A DNA stretch of 20,000 bases, taken from the IMG/VR virus record IMGVR_UViG_3300018413_000001; one strand, written 5' to 3'. Every line of letters begins with the position of its first letter. The stretch's first letter is position 1. The notes beneath the pieces were generated by a model. The model made no database searches. It was given only the letters and a program-made list of their open reading frames with translations, and had not been told where the DNA came from. The DNA comes from an uncultured virus (IMG/VR IMGVR_UViG_3300018413_000001). Its lineage: Duplodnaviria > Heunggongvirae > Uroviricota > Caudoviricetes. The position numbers were made by a program, and so were the translations under genes. Below are positions 2,713 through 20,000 of this stretch, piece after piece.

Positions 2713-3237
2713 ATGGCCACCCCAATTAAAGACCTCACCGGAAAAACATTTAACCGCTGGTTTGTGATCGAACAGGCACCCAGCGACCCTGCACGTTCAC
2801 AAACCCTGTGGCGCTGCCGGTGCTCATGTGGCGTGGTCAAGGAAGCCGTTGCATATTGCAGCCTGACATCAGGCAGATCCGGCTCATGTGGGTGTGTCAA
2901 ACGCGAGCAGGGTGAAAGGCGCAGGGCCATGAAGGAATCTGCCAATCACCACAACAAGCACATGTGGTGGGGCAAACTGATGAAGCTCACGGAGATTGCC
3001 CGTCAGGAGAATGTGGATGCCATGGAGCTTCGGCGCAGGTATCTCTGCCAAGGCATTGCTCTTGATTGTGCTGTGATGGCGCTTAAGCACGAAGGCCGTG
3101 TATTCCACGAACGAGCAGCCAGCTATGGGGCAACAGGCGAGACAAGAACCGGGAAGAAACGCACGAGACATGTTGCCAATGGGAAACTGCTGCACCCCGT
3201 ATGTGAACCGCCCGACCCCCTTGCCGGCATCTGGTAA
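2713..3237 (+). CDS. HNH paralog lacking the catalytic core (Zn domain plus C-terminal domain)
   Basis: Shares DLTGKTFNRWFVIEQAP...WRCRCSCG...SCGC and KH.W.G...LT..AR.ENVD...GR.F.ERA...GAT...KRTR...DPLA..W with 1879..2664, but roughly 80 aa containing the HNH motif are absent. Confidence 0.8.
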   Translation: MATPIKDLTGKTFNRWFVIEQAPSDPARSQTLWRCRCSCGVVKEAVAYCSLTSGRSGSCGCVKREQGERRRAMKESANHHNKHMWWGKLMKLTEIARQENVDAMELRRRYLCQGIALDCAVMALKHEGRVFHERAASYGATGETRTGKKRTRHVANGKLLHPVCEPPDPLAGIW

Positions 3238-3985: not shown

Positions 3986-4013
3986 TTGACAATACCGCAG
4001 CGCGTGGCACCAT
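3986..4013 (+). promoter_or_regulatory. Putative promoter
   Basis: TTGACA(3986-3991)-16 bp-CACCAT with TG just upstream. Preceded by ATCACACTTT (3971), which also precedes the 3267 promoter (3243). Confidence 0.4.
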
Positions 4014-6515: not shown

Positions 6516-7049
6516 TTGAAGTCACAGCCCAATAGCAATTACATTAGCAACGATGTGGTGATGACTCCGCTGCACCTTGCCAAGCGGATTGTTGAGCATT
6601 TCAAGCCTTGCGGTAATGTGCTTGAACCGTGTGCAGGTGAAGGCAGTTTCATGAATGCTTTGCAAAAATATTCAGAAAACTACCAGCCCATTGGCATTGA
6701 CTGGTGCGAGGTATCCAAAGGCCGGGACTTTTTCAACTGGGGGGCCAAAGCCAACTGGATCATCACCAACCCGCCATGGAGTCAGATCCGGCAGTTCCTT
6801 CAGCACAGCATGGTATTGGCTGATGAGATTGTGTTCCTGATGACAGTGAACCACTGCTGGACAAAGGCCCGTGTGCGCGATGTAAAGCAGCACGGGTTCG
6901 GCATCAAAGAGATTTGCCTTGTGGAGTTTCCACCGGAGTTCCCGTCATCTGGGTTCCAGCTTGGGGCCATCCACTTTTCCCGAGACTGGAAAGGTGACAT
7001 CAAGTTTTCAGACATCTCACAACAAGACCCACTCGAAGGAGTTTGGTAA
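6516..7049 (+). CDS. Orphan DNA N6-adenine (amino) methyltransferase
   Basis: D.VMTP, then motif I VLEPCAGEGSF, GRDFF, and motif IV IITNPPW. TTG start directly after the upstream TGA. Ends in DPLEGVW. Confidence 0.85.
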   Translation: MKSQPNSNYISNDVVMTPLHLAKRIVEHFKPCGNVLEPCAGEGSFMNALQKYSENYQPIGIDWCEVSKGRDFFNWGAKANWIITNPPWSQIRQFLQHSMVLADEIVFLMTVNHCWTKARVRDVKQHGFGIKEICLVEFPPEFPSSGFQLGAIHFSRDWKGDIKFSDISQQDPLEGVW

Positions 7050-9535: not shown

Positions 9536-10149
9536 AAGCGTTCATTGTTTACACCCCGGACATCAAGGAGATGGCTGAAGAATGCCGTGACCGGGTGCTG
9601 CGGTTTACCAACATCAAAGCGGTGGAATTGCTGGCGGCAGACACAAGGTTTGCAGCACATCGGATGAAGTTGGAGGCGTGGCAATGGTTTGGTGGCCCCA
9701 CGTGGTTGGTGGATGCGGATCTGTGGTTTTTGCAGTCTTGCATCTTGCCGGTGCCGGATGGGCTTGTGATCTTTGGCAACCCGGACAACTCTCCCATCAA
9801 CAAAGAGAGATATTGGGGGACGGTCGTGGAGATTGGGCATGCCATCAACACATCCTTGGTCGGCGCTGATTGTGGCAACGAGAGGATGCAAGAAGCTGTG
9901 AAAGAATCCATGTTGCTTCAGGCTGACAGGTATGGCGAAAACCCTGTGGCAGACGAGAAGTTTTTCAACGAGGCCATCAGCAAGCAGCCTCTGGTGATTG
10001 CCCGTCTCTCCACCCGCTTCAACTGGTGCGGCATCAACCCGCCAGCCCGGACTTTCGCGGTCCACGCCGCCAGCCAGTCAAACAAGCTCCAATGGCTCAG
10101 AGAATCCGTCCAAAATCATGAACGAAACACCACCGCCCCAGACCCCTGA
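9532..10149 (+). CDS. Second, divergent GT8-like glycosyltransferase
   Basis: LVDADLWF (DxD), INTSLV, ADEKFFN, LSTRFN and VHAAS are colinear with the upstream GT. Confidence 0.7.
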   Translation: MKAFIVYTPDIKEMAEECRDRVLRFTNIKAVELLAADTRFAAHRMKLEAWQWFGGPTWLVDADLWFLQSCILPVPDGLVIFGNPDNSPINKERYWGTVVEIGHAINTSLVGADCGNERMQEAVKESMLLQADRYGENPVADEKFFNEAISKQPLVIARLSTRFNWCGINPPARTFAVHAASQSNKLQWLRESVQNHERNTTAPDP

Positions 10150-10684
10150 GTGGACCAATGACTGGGCCTGCCACCACTACACCAACTGGATGAAGCATCT
10201 GGGCAGGTTCATCGGACATCCCGCGCTGGCGCTGGAGATCGGCTCATGTGAAGGCCGGTCTTCGTGCTTCTTCGTCCAGAACATTCTCACCCACCCGGAC
10301 TCGCGGCTCATCTGTGTGGACCCATGGGTGATGCCAGGAACGGAAGAACGGTTCCAGAAGAACATCGGCATTCTGGGGTGCCGGGAGAAAATCATAATTC
10401 ATCGAATGCCCAGTGATGAGCTTGTCCTGTCGTCACCCCCCGGATGTGATTTCATCTACATCGACGGCTGGCACTCGGCGGCAGCCACGATGAAGGATGC
10501 CTGCCGGTCATGGGTGGCGCTGAAAAAGGGCGGCATCATGATTTTTGACGACTACATGTGGCACATCAATGACCTGCCCCGAGTCGATGCGCCCAAGCTG
10601 GCCATTGACTCGTTCCTGCTGATTTTTGAGAAGGAATTGAAGGTGCTGCACATCGGTCAGCAGGTCATCGTGGAGAAGAGATAG
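10118..10684 (+). CDS. Class I SAM-dependent methyltransferase (Methyltransf_24-like)
   Basis: LEIGSCEGRSS, CVDPW, DFIYIDGWHS and LKKGGIMIFDDY; likely start at ATG 10118. Confidence 0.9.
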   Translation: MNETPPPQTPEWTNDWACHHYTNWMKHLGRFIGHPALALEIGSCEGRSSCFFVQNILTHPDSRLICVDPWVMPGTEERFQKNIGILGCREKIIIHRMPSDELVLSSPPGCDFIYIDGWHSAAATMKDACRSWVALKKGGIMIFDDYMWHINDLPRVDAPKLAIDSFLLIFEKELKVLHIGQQVIVEKR

Positions 10685-13194: not shown

Positions 13195-14148
13195 ATGCCA
13201 CCCCCAGCCACCAGTCCTGCAATGCGTGAGTTCGGTTATGGAGCACGCCGTGCTCTGGAGCCATACCGCAGTCCTGACGCCCAGACCTATCAAGATCCGA
13301 ACGTCAAACCGTATTTCCGCATGAACCAGCTCCCGGCTGCGGAGCGCAACAGTCTTGCGTACAGCGGCTATGCCCGGCAACAGGACAACATGGTGCTTCA
13401 GGAAGACCAGATCAACCAGCAACTGGCTGCCCAGCGTGAGAAACTGGGTCAGGACAAGCGCAAAGTGGCTCGACTTGAACAGGTGCAGGACGTGGAGGAT
13501 CAGGCCAACGAAGCATTGAACTCGGGAGTGCCTGCCAATCAGGTCATTCAGCAGTTTCCGGGACTGGTGCAGTCCCCGGCGTTTGGCCGGTATGCCCAGT
13601 TGGCCAAGATGGCATCGCCTGCCCAGCAGACACTGGCCCCCCACTTCCGCAAGAGCCTCAAGAGCCCAATTGCCCGGCAGTATTTTGACAAGCACTTCCA
13701 AGTCACCGGAGATGCCACCCAAGCACATGACCTCGCGCAGGCCGACGAGATGAATGACAATCTCAAGGTGGATCTTATCAAACACGGGGTGCCCTTCGAC
13801 ATCGTTGAAAGTCAGCAACGGTGGACTCCTCTGATGGCTCAGTCGGCCATCCAGACTCACGGTAAATCCAAAAAGGACAATCTTGATGAGCTGGGCTATC
13901 GCAAGGCCGTGTCCAAGTATTTCGATGACATGAAAGCTGAAGAGGATGTGATCGGTAAACCCCGTGACATGCTCAAAGTGAAAGAGGACATAGACAAACT
14001 CCGTGGAGTGTTCTTCCCACAAGCACCTGTGGCATCCCCCGTCGTCCCCGGTGCAAAACCGGCAGCATCCAGCACCCCGACCAAATCGAAAGTGCAAGTT
14101 TTGGCTGAGCGTTATGGCATCATCAAACCTAAAGTCACACAGCCATGA
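13195..14148 (+). CDS. Q-rich helical protein; putative DNA ejection/internal protein
   Basis: 317 aa, coiled-coil-like, directly upstream of and ATGA-coupled to the giant protein. Confidence 0.5.
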   Translation: MPPPATSPAMREFGYGARRALEPYRSPDAQTYQDPNVKPYFRMNQLPAAERNSLAYSGYARQQDNMVLQEDQINQQLAAQREKLGQDKRKVARLEQVQDVEDQANEALNSGVPANQVIQQFPGLVQSPAFGRYAQLAKMASPAQQTLAPHFRKSLKSPIARQYFDKHFQVTGDATQAHDLAQADEMNDNLKVDLIKHGVPFDIVESQQRWTPLMAQSAIQTHGKSKKDNLDELGYRKAVSKYFDDMKAEEDVIGKPRDMLKVKEDIDKLRGVFFPQAPVASPVVPGAKPAASSTPTKSKVQVLAERYGIIKPKVTQP

Positions 14149-17100
14149 GCCCGTGGGAAGAAGTTGAAAAAGACCCCGAGTTCTCCACTCTGGCTCCACA
14201 GGACAAGGCTGCTCTGTTTGACGACTGGCACAAGTCCACAGTTGAAGAGTTCCACAAAGACCTCGACCCCGATCAAATTGACAGCGCCGGGATGCGTGGG
14301 TTCCTTGCTTCGGGTCAGGCCAAGCGACGGGAACTGCTTGGTGAACCGGTGGCCCCGGAGCAGGCAGTCAAGGAGTTCGATCAAAGCTTGCAGGCCCGCA
14401 GCAAAGCACAGCAGCAAGCACTCAATGACTATGACGAGCTGGAGAAGGCACGCTTCGCATTGAAAGATGCCGGGCTCACCCAGCAGTTTATGTCCGGCTT
14501 TGGTGAATCCGAAGCAGGGAGTGCCCCACAGGAGGCCACTGAAAACAAGCAGAAAGAAATCGAGGCCATCCGCAGCCGGATCACCCCAGAACTTGAAAAA
14601 CAGGCCAAGGAAGCACGGGAAGCCCTTCGTGGTGAGCGCCCGGCAGCCGTTCTCGGCAGTGACATCTATACAGACCCCTCGCTGGTTCTCGACAAGGAGA
14701 AATACCGGCAGGCCATTCAGTCCACCGACGCGTCGCCCGAGGCCAAACTGCTGGCGCTCGCGGACTACAACACCCGGCGTGACGATTTTGCCAAGAAGGC
14801 TTTGAACACGTTCAACACGGCGGGTGAAGCTCCAAAGCCATACTTCTTTGGTGCTGAAAAAGTGCTGCCTGAGATGACCTCTTTTGCCAAGTGGGAATCC
14901 GAACAACCACCAGAAGTGCGTTCCAAACGACCCGAAGACAAAGCTCTCGATTACCTGCGCACCATGCAGGGCCGTCCGGGGTTCCAGAAGATTGTGAGTG
15001 CCATAGGTACTGGGACAATGCAAGGCGGTGCTGATGTGGCTAGTCAAGGGATCGGCCTGGCAGCCATGACCACTGGCAGCGACGCTCTGGCTAAGAAAGC
15101 CGGGGAAGTCGAGAAAGGTAGCCAGTTGATGTCCGAAGTGCAGAACCTTGAAGGTGACACAAAAGGGACAGATGTTTTTGATGTGGGTGGTGTGAAAGCT
15201 AATGCAGCAACTACGTTGGGCGGTCTTTCCCGTCTCGGTGTGGGCATGGCCCCGGCCATCGGTGCTGGTGTGCTCACTGGAGGCAGTCTCCCCGCAGCCG
15301 CGTTGGCAGCCGGTGCCCAGACAGCCGGTGCCCAGTTTCCGACCACCTACAATGCCATGATCGAGCAGGGCAAGACCCCAGAGGAGGCACTGAGTGCTTC
15401 CCGTGGTGCCGCCGTGCTATCAGGAGGCATCACGGCAGCCCTGACAGCCTTGGGTGGTTACAACGGTGTGGAAGCTCTGGTGCGCCGTGGCGGCATGGAG
15501 GCTGCCCGCAGCAAGCTCAAGTCGGTGCTGCTGACCGGCCCGCTCAAGGAAATTGCCGAAGAACTGCCCGACGAACAGGCCAGTCAGATCATTGAATCGA
15601 GTCTGACCAATCCTGACAAGCCGGTCTCACAGGTGGTCGATGAGTTCATGGCCAAAGCGCCGGACCTCGCCTTGCAGGTGGGCCTTCTTGGCGGAGCCGG
15701 TGAAGCCTTCTCCAAGCAAGGCACCGTCCCCGCAGTGCCAACACCTGCGGAGCAGCAACGCACTCCTGTAAACTCGGCTGGTCTGGGCCGCACCGTGGGT
15801 GAAGTCGTCGCTGAAGCGGATGCTCTCAAAGCCAAAGCACAGCAGCAAGCTGTTGAATCTGGCTCCCCTCTGCTGGCTCAAGCCATTGCAGAAAATGTGG
15901 CTGCCCCCACTCCCGAGGCTCAAACGGAGGAAACAGGAGAAACCGCAGAGCCAAGCGAAACACAGGAGCCGGGGGCAGCCGGGCAGACCACAGAACCACT
16001 TTCTGATACAGAAGTCAAGGCGACAAATGACCAAATCTCCCCCACCAACGAAACACCAACAAACCAAGACAATGCCACTCAGCAAGAGCCCATCCAAGAA
16101 GGCGTTCTCCAAGAACGTCAAAACCGAGATCAAAGCCGGGAAAAAACCGAAGCAGGCCGTAGCGATAGCGTACAGCGTTCAGCGCAAGGCCAAGAAGAAG
16201 TAGCCCCGACCAATATCACCAACAACGTGGCCCTGGTCGAACAGGGCCACGTTGATCAGCATGCAGGTGAGTCGCGAACTCCGGCAGAGGGGTCGATCTC
16301 TGACGTTACCACAGGAAAAATGGCTGATAATAAGCCATTGTCAACTATTGACCCGTCTGTACAGGGGGTCGTCACACTTCAACCGGAGCAACTGGCTGCT
16401 CTCACACCGAACCCGGCTGAGATCGAGCAGGCCATTCAAGACAACCAGACTCCAGCCCGTGAGTCGATGGACCTGAACAAAGCCGGACCCATCTTGGTGA
16501 TCCGTCAGAAAGACGGCACCCTGAAGGTGGCCCAAGGGCACCACCGTCTGGCCCGTGCTTTGCGTGACAACGTGCCTCTGCGTGTGGACATTCAGAACGA
16601 AGCCACAGCCAAACCGCTCAAGAGCATCCCAGACCGCATCAAAGAGTCTTCGCTTTCACCACGGACCACCTACCCGACGCTCGTTCAGGACATCAAGAAC
16701 CTCACTGGCAATACTGCAAGCAAATTGCAGGAAGTCGCTGATGCCCTCCTGCCTGAACCGATGGCCCGGCCTACGGCTGAGAAAATCGCCCGTCGTCTGA
16801 TGGAGGACAACGCCGTGCAACGAGAGGCCGGTGCCGCCCGTGAACGCGCTATCGAACGCAAACTCATTGGCGAAGAGAAAGCCCAGCGTGGAGACGAGCG
16901 CCCGGTCAGCGATGACAAGGCCCCCGTCACGCAGGGAGATTTCGTCACATGGCAGGATGAGAACGGAGCCATGCGTGAAGGTGTGCTCACCAAGGCCAGC
17001 GCCGGACGCGGCAGCCTCGGAGAGCCGATGTCCGAAGTGACCCTTGAAGACAGCCAGGTGGTGCAGGTGCCACGGCGCGAACTGCAACCGCTCATGGCCA

Positions 17101-20000
17101 GCAGCCGGGGCAACCCGGTGCAGGCATCCCGTGCCGAGGCCATTGAGTCTTTGCGCGGCCATCTTGGCAAGGAAGTCTCGGTGGGTGTGTCAGCCGTGGA
17201 CGCCATCAACGGGGCTGCCGAGCTTCAGGGAGATGTGCCCGGCGTGCAGAAAGCATGGGTGGGCACCAGTGACGAGTTTCTGGCTGACGAGGGGCTGCGC
17301 AAAGCGTTCCCGCAGGTCAACAAAGCCATGACAAGCCCCGACAGCAGCCGGTTCGAGGGGTTGTTCTCGGGTGGCCGTGCGTTCGTCTTCACCGACAACG
17401 TGGGCATCTATGAAGGTGACATCGAACTGGCCGCACAGGAGGGCATGCCACCCGGTCAGGCTGCGGTGCAACGGGTGATCACGCACGAAGCTCTGGTGCA
17501 TCGTGGGTTCTATGCCCTCGACAAGCCGACACGGCAGGCACTCTTGCGCTGGGGTGAGCAGAACATTTACGAAGGTGAGATGGACGCCAAGGCCGAGGAG
17601 TACGGCGTCGGTGCCAACTGGCGCTCAGACGTGGGCTCCCGCGAGTGGCTGATGGAGGAAATCATGGCCAAGATGATCGAGCGGTTGAAGGCACCGCCGA
17701 AGTCGGGGCCGCTGAAGCAATTGTGGGACATCCTGGCGAGCCTGTGGCGCAAGCTCACCGGCAGAAGCCGCGAAGTCACATTGAAAGACATCCACGACGT
17801 GGCGAAGCTGCTGCGCACGGCGCTTGAACTTGCCGAGAACAACGTCCAGACACGGGACGGAATGCCGATCAGGGTTGAGGTGGTGAAGCCGTCGATGGCG
17901 GGGGAACGTGGTGCTCTGGATGCTGAGTACATGGCAGCCGTGGAGTCCGGCGATGTCGCGAAGCAGCAGGCGATGGTGGACGCGGCGGCGAAGGCTGCGA
18001 TGCCTGATAGTGTAGTTCATGAACGCATGTTGTCATCCAAGGAGCGCCGTCAGGACAAACCGCTCCTGAAGACATATCACGGCACTGATCAGGAGTTCAA
18101 TACTTTTGAATCTGGCAGACCTACTGCGGATGACTGGGGCTTCTTTGGCACGATAGAAACTAACAGGCATGGCAGCTTTTTCGCTGAGAACAAAACCTTT
18201 GCGGAGACATACGCCAAAGCGCGGCAAGGCAAAAGGGTCATCAGCGTGTTCTTAAATATCAAGAATCCATTTCAGTTCACGGATGCACAGGACATTCTGG
18301 AATCGCGAGAATTCGGGGAAGAGATGACCGCAGACTTTCACATGGCGCGGTGGCTCATGTCCCTGAAGCATCAGTGGGAGGCATTTGATGGCAGGGAGGG
18401 TGTGGAGTTCACAAACTGGCTGAGATCAAAAGGATACGATGGTGCTTTCATTCAAGAGGATGGGCACGGGTTAGTGGATGCAGAAGAAGTGCAAGACGTG
18501 TGGGTGGCACTTGACCCCAACCAGATCAAATCCGCCGATCCCATCACCCGCGATGCCAATGGCAACGTGATCCCGCTCTCACAGCGGTTCAACACGGAGT
18601 CCAATGACATCCGGTTCTCTGTCCGCCCCACATACACATCACCCCTCGACCAGACTCTGGCCAACACGGCCAAAGCCGTTCGTCTCATGCGTGACGGGCC
18701 TCCCGCCGTGCCGGTGAACCTGCAAGAGGTCTATCAGAAAGCACAGGTGGGCAAGTCCTCGGCCATGGTGTCGCTTGATGACATGTTTGCCGAGGCAAAG
18801 AAAACCCACCCGGACCTCACCGAGGCCGAGTTTGGCCAGCAGGTGCAGGCGATGTACGATGACAATGGTGCCTACATCGAACCGGCTGACTCACCCACCG
18901 CGATGCGCGAGGCCGGGGAGAAGTACAACGTGAGGACGCAAGGAGTTCCAGCGTCATATGTGATGGTGCTTGATGGGGCACCACCAAATGCATCTTTCCG
19001 CCCCGAGGTGGCTGAAAAACTGAAGCGCGTTGTAGAGGTGGCCCAGACAGCATCTGGTGGCATCACAGAGTCTGAGCAACCACAGACACAAAGCCCGGCT
19101 GGGGTCAATCCTGTTCACACATTCACACAGCAGTCGGGTGAATCCCATGTGGATGCTGCTGTGCAGATTTTTGACGCTATGGAATCTGAAGGCGTGTCCA
19201 AGGAAGAATGGGTTGACGAAATCACCAGCCCAGCCGTGATCCGTCAGCTTGGCATTGATAATGACATGATGAGCGTTCTGCTGGCCGAAGCAATGCGCCG
19301 GGATGCCCCTGGTGCTTTCAGTGCTTATGAGGTCACTCGTGAGCGTGCAGGTCGTGCTCTCGGCAGCGGGGCCATGATCCACAACCATCCACGGTATCAG
19401 CATCTCTTCGTGCTCAATGGCATCAAGAAAGAGCATCAGCAGCAGGCCAATGACATTGCCGAGGCCAACGCCGACATCAAAACCGATGAGGTCAAGAAGA
19501 TTGTTGCCGAGTCTGGCCGCACGGCTGACCAAGAACTGGCTGATGATGCCATGGAAGCCGCATTCCGTGAAGGGGAAGAGGCTTTGAACAAGGAGAACAA
19601 AACCTTGTGGAGTAACCTCAAGGACTGGATCACAGAGATTGGGGTTATTTTGCAGATCAAGGCAGCCAGAAAAGCCAAAGCGGACAAGAATGCAGCAAAA
19701 CCATCTGCGTCATTGGCTGGTGTCGTTTCTCAAGCTCGATACGAAGAATTGAACAACCTGTCAGATGATCAGCTTGATGCACTTTTTGCAAAAAGACAGA
19801 ATGACATTTCTGCTGCTGCCAAGAAGATGCTGGGCAAAGGCCCCAAGGCAAAGGCTAATCCTGATGCCAGGCGCATCGCCACGCTGGTGAACCGGCTGTC
19901 CGAACAGCTCGGGGTGCCAACTGACATCACATCAGCGGTGGAAGCTTTGACGGCTTCACAGGACTCGCTCAAGAGCCAGTTCGAGCAGAGCATCGTGGAC
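14145..20000 (+). CDS. Giant polyvalent internal virion protein (>1950 aa, runs off the window) with ParB-like, zincin-like metallopeptidase and ART-PolyVal-like domains
   Basis: Hand translation from ATG 14145 ([13 protein letters not shown]...) finds no stop through 20000. G/A-rich hydrophobic region about 15000-15720; [19 protein letters not shown] about 16488-16550; FEGLF...[10 protein letters not shown]...EEIMA about 17350-17670; [12 protein letters not shown]...YHGT...LNIKNP...GYDG...DPNQIKSA...DIRFS about 17916-18620. Confidence 0.9.
16072..16203 (+). CDS. Nested 43-aa Lys-rich protein overprinted in the +1 frame of the giant gene
   Basis: [43 protein letters not shown] resembles the common small phage protein pattern MPL.K..S.K..S.N...E...GK..KQA.AIA.S. 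It has an A/C-rich leader like other starts in the window. Confidence 0.75.

Follow-up and report, generated by a model that had tools for sequence, protein, structure and literature searches.

A PHROG 2423 gene nested in the +1 frame of a giant polyvalent-protein gene of an uncultured tailed phage, and its probable capture out of frame

Results

The window ends in a giant polyvalent-protein gene. The window is the whole stretch of 20,000 nucleotides that we analyzed, from an uncultured virus (IMG/VR record IMGVR_UViG_3300018413_000001). The giant gene begins at position 14145 on the + strand and continues beyond the window end at 20000; on a contig that matches the window without a difference over 12,152 bases (L085), its open reading frame is 3012 codons long. 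The product has an ART-PolyVal domain (aa 1307-1465; 18063-18539, + strand; Pfam, E 5.9e-19), and with this match above the cut-off and a length of 3012 aa it falls among the polyvalent proteins, probably as an ejection or internal virion protein. The same record encodes a terminase (phrog_2) and a capsid candidate that resembles capsid clusters, by features only, and we therefore take the virus to be a tailed phage. The direct neighbors of the giant gene were unannotated in Pfam and PHROG profile searches, and we found neither a sigma-70 promoter nor a + strand terminator in 14000-17500.

Relatives of the giant gene differ in domain content. A 3125-aa relative of the giant protein (P0142) shares the linker that contains, in the window, the nested gene described below. 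In the relative L226, ART-PolyVal is replaced by LPD23 and YkuD, with an additional metallopeptidase-like match, and the giant gene of L223 lacks ART-PolyVal. The giant genes of L223, L226 and the window appear to have several domain-swap sites. A GHHR-containing segment at about 16480-16600 (giant aa ~780-820), which we take to recall ParB-like domains, had no Pfam match and is absent from L226 at the corresponding place. Elsewhere in the window, two adjacent genes (1879-2664 and 2713-3237) both match phrog_374 (HNH endonuclease) from the same profile start, as a tandem paralogue pair, and methyltransferase-like genes lie at 6516-7049 (phrog_799) and 9998-10684 (Methyltransf_24).

A small basic gene lies wholly inside the giant gene. 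The nested gene (16072-16203, + strand) runs from ATG to TAG in the +1 frame relative to the giant gene, which is open throughout, one base behind. It encodes a 43-aa protein with 14 K/R and 1 D/E. In the host frame, the same bases (16071-16202, + strand; giant aa 643-686) read as a Q/E/R/S-rich linker with 6 K/R and 9 D/E. The initial annotation of this DNA had described the 43-aa frame and the open giant frame across it, and we reproduced both translations. Contigs of three RNA runs and one DNA run were compared with 14400-18000: X1 spans this entire interval as a single piece and may be DNA, and X19 and X20 lie outside the nested gene.

The likely initiation region of the nested gene (16042-16071, + strand) is an A/C-rich leader that is unstructured, as initially described, and has no Shine-Dalgarno (SD) sequence. 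The folding energy of the 40 bases spanning the start is 0.0 kcal/mol, which places them in the weakest 0.9% of equivalent segments within 1.5 kb. At 19 of 22 nested loci (17 from one family), the start-region fold is within the weakest 4.3%. Some nested copies in other phages do have SD sequences, AAGGAG before the ATG in L129 and L091 and GGAG in L040, and an SD core is encodable by the host residues before the start in 25 of 41 proteins from outside that family, versus 40% locally (p 0.004), a measure of compatibility only. By eye, the starts of this phage (window 7290-20000, G002) have no evident SD and have C/A-rich leaders. Such leaders are expected in hosts that do without SD pairing. 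Since the phage's own starts look SD-less, the A/C leader of the nested gene fits.

The nested peptide belongs to a widespread phage family. A profile search with the 43-aa peptide, as proposed in the initial annotation, matched PHROG 2423 (E 3.7e-21, residues 1-43 on profile positions 1-43 of 52), and 214 of 220 candidate proteins matched the same profile at E<=0.001. We conclude from this membership that the nested peptide is not a chance frame. It retains all 8 invariant family positions, and its best ten database matches are 77-86% identical. Family matches occur in 448 phage records. In four records that we examined and in cyanophage MED4-117, free copies are found among terminase, portal and head genes; their positions include the interval between terminase and portal and the place after a head-morphogenesis gene, and some copies form the beginning of a longer ORF in a block of structural genes. 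The MED4-117 copy (L213, NC_020857.1 6615-6743) is unannotated, a weak family match (44%, E 0.05) among head genes. Longer forms of the family are common (3341 matches among 7999 scored candidates, many with DUF6321), and the family domain is also found inside prohead proteases and a Nudix protein. NCBIfam had no match for the nested peptide, and a degenerate pattern had 0 matches in prokaryote genomes. These results agree with the initial annotation, which had recognized a widespread and usually free-standing phage family. Its comparison to DUF6496 (PF20106) was not supported: 0 of 51 family members matched at E<=10, with the model assumed present in the Pfam copy searched, and the sole lead was the 30th atlas cluster, 15% DUF6496.

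The predicted structure is a helical hairpin. The AlphaFold model is confident (pLDDT 92), with helices at residues 9-21 and 26-42. A PDB fold search with this hairpin returned nothing at E<=0.001, the best VIA fold match (Z 6.0) was among generic helical pairs, and no sequence relative of the peptide was found in the PDB. We also considered the coat-binding helix-loop-helix of P22-type scaffold as a functional analogue; it was not among the fold-search matches listed. As modeled, the fold is a generic hairpin for which solved structures are uninformative. The peptide is not an embedded spanin, as it has no cysteine or hydrophobic signal and its host is a 3012-aa polyvalent protein.

Selection acts on the nested frame. 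The initial annotation had proposed examining constraint in both frames, and we did so in a lake-phage family around L119, using 32 loci (two incomplete) that were fetched by the upstream host protein while ignoring the peptide. The ATG, the frame and the stop position are intact in all 30 complete loci. Among 28 distinct copies, pN/pS, from pairwise counts without a tree, was 0.24 in the peptide frame (bootstrap 0.13-0.44) and 2.99 in the host frame (1.6-7.2). Just upstream, it was 0.17 for the host frame and 1.83 for the +1 frame. Variation at host codon positions 1, 2 and 3 was 0.049, 0.033 and 0.181 upstream and 0.222, 0.109 and 0.051 inside the nested interval, that is, the peak moves from position 3 to position 1. 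All three stop codons are used (TAG 10, TGA 10, TAA 8), and over the 150 codons preceding the nested gene, 2-5 stops interrupt the +1 frame.

The relative P0142 has a similar pattern. It differs from the window's giant protein at 9 of 44 host residues in the nested interval, and 7 of these 9 differences are compatible with a silent change in +1, versus 31 of 113 elsewhere (Fisher p 0.004; protein only). We infer that P0142 also has the nested frame. The open frames, the conserved start and stop, and the purifying selection on the nested frame indicate, at the level of sequence, a functional internal overlapping gene, and the host-frame segment (giant aa 643-686) appears to behave as a by-product of it.

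The nested gene occupies a variable slot in the giant gene. The slot (approximate ends 16030-16254, + strand) contains the nested gene in the window and other contents in relatives, which we found using the C-terminal part of the giant protein. The comparison covers L223, L226 and L260/L263; L224 ends before the site and L225 was left out. Both flanks are kept in L223 (92% there), which has an unrelated insert of ~110 residues, and in L226 (85%), which has an insert of ~45 residues; neither has the nested gene. L260 and L263, alike over the stretch shown, keep the flanks with a short linker only. The insert in L223 (3177-3572) looks globular and had no Pfam match. PHROG 2423 was not found elsewhere in the six slot-relative records (G008 100% and G012 91% complete, with G002 as the positive control). 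The capsid candidates of three such relatives are 86-97% identical to that of this phage, and the family is therefore not essential. Its absence in relatives could be due to loss or replacement and not to a gain here. The segment is missing from this site in close relatives, and for that reason we take the small frame to be the older one and the host frame to be the by-product.

The right side of the slot has structured sequence that is separate from the nested gene. A 13-bp perfect hairpin (16223-16254, no strand assigned) lies 20 bases after the nested stop. We rejected it as a component of that gene, since a hairpin, though of another sequence, occupies the corresponding place in relatives that lack the nested gene, and a downstream fold in the top 2% was found in only 3 of 22 nested loci. 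To its right is a nucleotide-conserved, probably structured element (16262-16310, no strand assigned) that is present with or without the nested gene. In the window (16223-16310) and in L259, L260 and L262, the hairpin occurs in three sequences, followed by ~50 nucleotide-conserved bases. Of 11 predicted pairs in the hairpin right of the slot, 7 are changed on both sides among 4 sequences. Rfam had no match in 15900-16500. The hairpin and conserved element might serve as a signal for RNA processing or for termination, or might mark a boundary of recombination.

Nesting recurs in other giant genes. Among 80 viral loci fetched by the peptide, one (L040, with a 1707-aa LPD38 protein as host) had the host phase open over 600 bases or more to each side. 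Among 80 loci with flanks that were fetched with a phase-biased pattern, the host phase was open to this extent in 14, one of them the L040 contig again; L088 was left out since it is on the same contig as L040. Nesting in the other phase or antisense was seen in 0 loci of both sets, with a pattern biased to the host phase and unequal searching power. L143, L147 and L087 were rejected as nestings; they are high-GC shadow frames. At the DNA level there are four host lineages: that of the window, L129/L152, L040/L091, and the lake-phage family around L119.

The initial annotation had suggested looking for nested +1 homologues in other polyvalent genes, and a profile of the host-frame reading extended the DNA-level set. 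It gave 165 matches among 1.84 billion representatives; the 150 matches listed include 51 of at least 1000 aa and 10 of 500-999 aa. The peptide is encodable in +1 in 60 of these 61 listed matches of at least 500 aa, at 76-149 bits versus a background maximum of 45 bits over 13,558 other positions, in a test that is partly circular (the profile was built from nested copies) and in which the L119 family accounts for 19 of the 60. The 89 listed matches under 500 aa may include many shadow calls that stem from free genes. When the nested segment was masked, the 60 proteins and two DNA-confirmed hosts formed 10 groups by any BLAST match and 24 groups by 300 aligned residues. In 22 scanned hosts, we found ART-PolyVal, LPD38 or InPase in 8, MutS_I in 1 and nothing in 13. 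The nested copy is the sole copy of the family in 5 of 5 records, 4 of which are at least 99% complete.

Several loci have additional features. Further +1 ORFs lie directly upstream of the nested peptide in L215 (10768-10932 and 10975-11061) and L217 (2495-2599), and one of these has a perfect AAGGAGGT SD. No homologue of the extra nested ORF of L215 was found; that of L217 has weak matches to L079 and L122. These tandem ORFs are possible nested mini-operons. In L069, the other phase is open from the peptide start at 4001 for 2.3 kb downstream. The L087 locus (2-1672) has a terminase-like frame that continues through a free peptide gene and into the next gene, in the host phase, possibly as an intermediate for capture by read-through or possibly by high-GC chance. 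T is rare at third positions of the nested copies (0-1 of 39 codons, versus a mean of 0.19 in 83 other copies). We rejected this as a diagnostic of nesting when taken alone, as equally low values occur in 283 of 2968 +1 segments of the giant gene.

The nested copies do not group together in the family tree. For each of 13 nested peptides, some free copy is nearer than any nested copy from a different lineage. The tree requires 7 changes of state, and a single clade of nested copies was rejected (p-AU 0.024). No starred branch forces more than one origin. The alignment has 44 columns and sets 13 nested rows against 70 free ones, the latter reduced by an 85% identity cut; for these reasons the result is suggestive only.

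Discussion

We propose, with a probability of roughly 0.8, that an older PHROG 2423 gene was captured out of frame in a slot of the giant gene. A pre-existing small head gene with its own initiation region would have become a cassette in the variable linker slot, one base out of frame and in a version without stops in the other frame. Entry into this tolerant slot would be by recombination. The late mRNA would then be read twice: translation from 14145 would give the giant protein, and internal initiation at 16072 would give the 43-aa peptide. With this phasing, wobble bases of the peptide would be first codon positions of the host and lysine codons would give the last two bases of Glu, Gln and Lys codons, so a Lys/Ala-rich helix would read as a tolerated Glu/Gln/Gly/Arg-rich linker. 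Selection would act on the peptide, and the same capture would have happened more than once in different giant genes. Judging from sequence comparisons, we regard translation of the nested peptide as highly probable and insertion as the likely direction of change. That nesting arose repeatedly is also a reading that we favor, a little less firmly.

The frame requirement limits such captures. With the codon usage of free genes, the chance of being stop-free is 3.2% in the host phase and 29.5% in the other phase; because the host phase is so rarely stop-free, capture needs luck or pre-adapted codons. At ~3% the share of suitable free-type copies is small, but the family is abundant.

Several alternatives account for parts of these results. 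The strongest, which we nevertheless consider unlikely, is that the small gene lay between two virion genes and was engulfed when they fused through its other frame. Free copies do sit in blocks of virion genes, the tandem +1 ORFs before the peptide in L215 and L217 resemble an engulfed cluster, the terminase frame of L087 already runs through a free copy, and the available sections of PMC6139136 discuss such a route for embedded spanins. However, the giant ORF of relatives is continuous, with the same flanks and other or no inserts, pointing to a swap slot in a gene that was already fused.

We think it very improbable that the nested gene is a recent passenger, a young insertion whose +1 frame is intact merely by age and which is not translated. 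Its lack of an SD and the absence of the family from close relatives would be expected of such an insertion, but the differences in P0142 are mostly silent-compatible in +1, the start region is unusually unstructured, all invariant family positions are kept, and the same arrangement in the L119 family is under strong purifying selection.

Even less likely is an origin of the peptide de novo in the +1 frame of the linker, with later escape as a free family. The initial annotation had proposed true overprinting in a linker. The nested gene is indeed in a linker and under selection, and that part stands; the part that does not is the order of events, as the peptide frame appears to be the older and relatives lack the segment. 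In its favor, the de novo frames described so far are mostly internal and +1 (PMC8227390, in its available sections), and nested copies are found in many giant genes. The free family is, however, far more widespread, the host-frame segment lacks purifying selection and is absent from close relatives, and the nested copies are not one clade. Finally, an assembly or frameshift artefact that misjoined a free gene into the giant ORF can be dismissed: high-GC shadow frames did produce the false nestings at L143, L147 and L087, but the same reading is found in L085, L219 and L220, a divergent contig crosses 15874-16552 with 10 differences and no gap, P0142 shares the linker, and Pfam domains show that the host is a genuine gene.

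Homologues of the nested peptide point to the virion. ORF22 of Pbunavirus SCUT-S1, 63% identical to the nested peptide over 43 aa, was detected by mass spectrometry in LiCl/DNase ghost particles (7 peptides, 77% coverage; PMC6521218, in the sections available). In Pa193, gp21 was detected by LC-MS but has no assigned place in the structure, where a helical trimer beneath the hexons is unassigned (PMC11456595, in the sections available); by position and length only, gp21 would be a PHROG 2423 orthologue. We lean toward the captured gene encoding a small head-interior virion protein. Tentatively, the hairpin might dock on the inner shell or on another head protein with its basic ends toward the DNA, a picture favored by the virion homologue, the place among head genes, and the fusion to prohead proteases. 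Its main rival, a free DNA-condensing peptide as initially suggested, is less likely. The presence of the homologue in LiCl/DNase ghosts fits attachment to the shell no less well than it fits a free core peptide that condenses DNA. Prediction of a complex between the peptide and the capsid candidate scored 0.00 in two runs and is no evidence either way.

Linker slots of giant ejection genes might be recurrent docking sites for whole small virion genes, taken up in the +1 phase because the genetic code renders Lys/Ala-rich helices as acidic and polar linkers, giving a hidden layer of swappable microproteins. We offer this as a speculation that the present data encourage without yet favoring. 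If true, head microproteins would be found across dozens of unrelated phage lineages, sometimes in nested mini-operons, and would be made from the same mRNA as the cargo that is packaged with them. The nesting also means that parts of the 'disordered linkers' of polyvalent proteins are shadow readings of genes that lack annotation. A conserved virion gene has its sole copy hidden in this way in four near-complete genomes, and analyses of gene content and virion proteomes therefore miss it. The filled, other-insert and empty slots are natural replicates of overlap formation between two existing genes, and with such relatives side by side, the origin of an overlapping gene is directly testable.

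The arrangement resembles several known systems and differs from each. Our host gene has ART-PolyVal, like the polyvalent proteins of phages, and other nesting hosts have LPD38, ART-PolyVal or InPase. Polyvalent proteins have been proposed to be packaged and ejected (PMC5512222; phi24B gp47, bioRxiv 10.64898/2026.04.10.717836). The word 'overlap' is absent from the main text of PMC5512222, and the sections available of the polyvalent-protein papers that we examined have no nested genes. Literature searches, with most subscription papers outside their coverage, returned no description of such nesting. The genes for SCUT-S1 ORF22 and Pa193 gp21 are free-standing, 68 aa, and follow a head-morphogenesis gene, whereas that of the window is 43 aa and nested.

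Embedded spanins (lambda Rz/Rz1, T7) are alike in that a same-strand gene lies wholly inside another, often in +1, and is missed by annotation (PMC6139136, in the sections available here and below). In the view of the authors of that survey, embedded forms arose from genes that had been separate. A spanin pair is functionally fixed, and in those sections the survey has no family that is both embedded and separated. In contrast, PHROG 2423 is one family that is both free and nested, in largely unalike giant hosts, and is optional at the site.

The ORgenes of E. coli are also alike, in that one existing gene is integrated out of frame into another and supplies its alternative frame; full-size out-of-frame integration has been proposed in theory (PMC8788219, sections available). 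Unlike ORgenes, the gene captured here keeps its start, its stop and its purifying selection. De novo overprinting, as in phiX174 E within D, shares the internal +1 overlap and the disorder in one frame (PMC8227390), but the genealogy is reversed: here there are hundreds of free homologues of the nested frame, and it is the outer reading that is new. Nested frames are usually assumed to be the younger ones, and this case would reverse that assumption.
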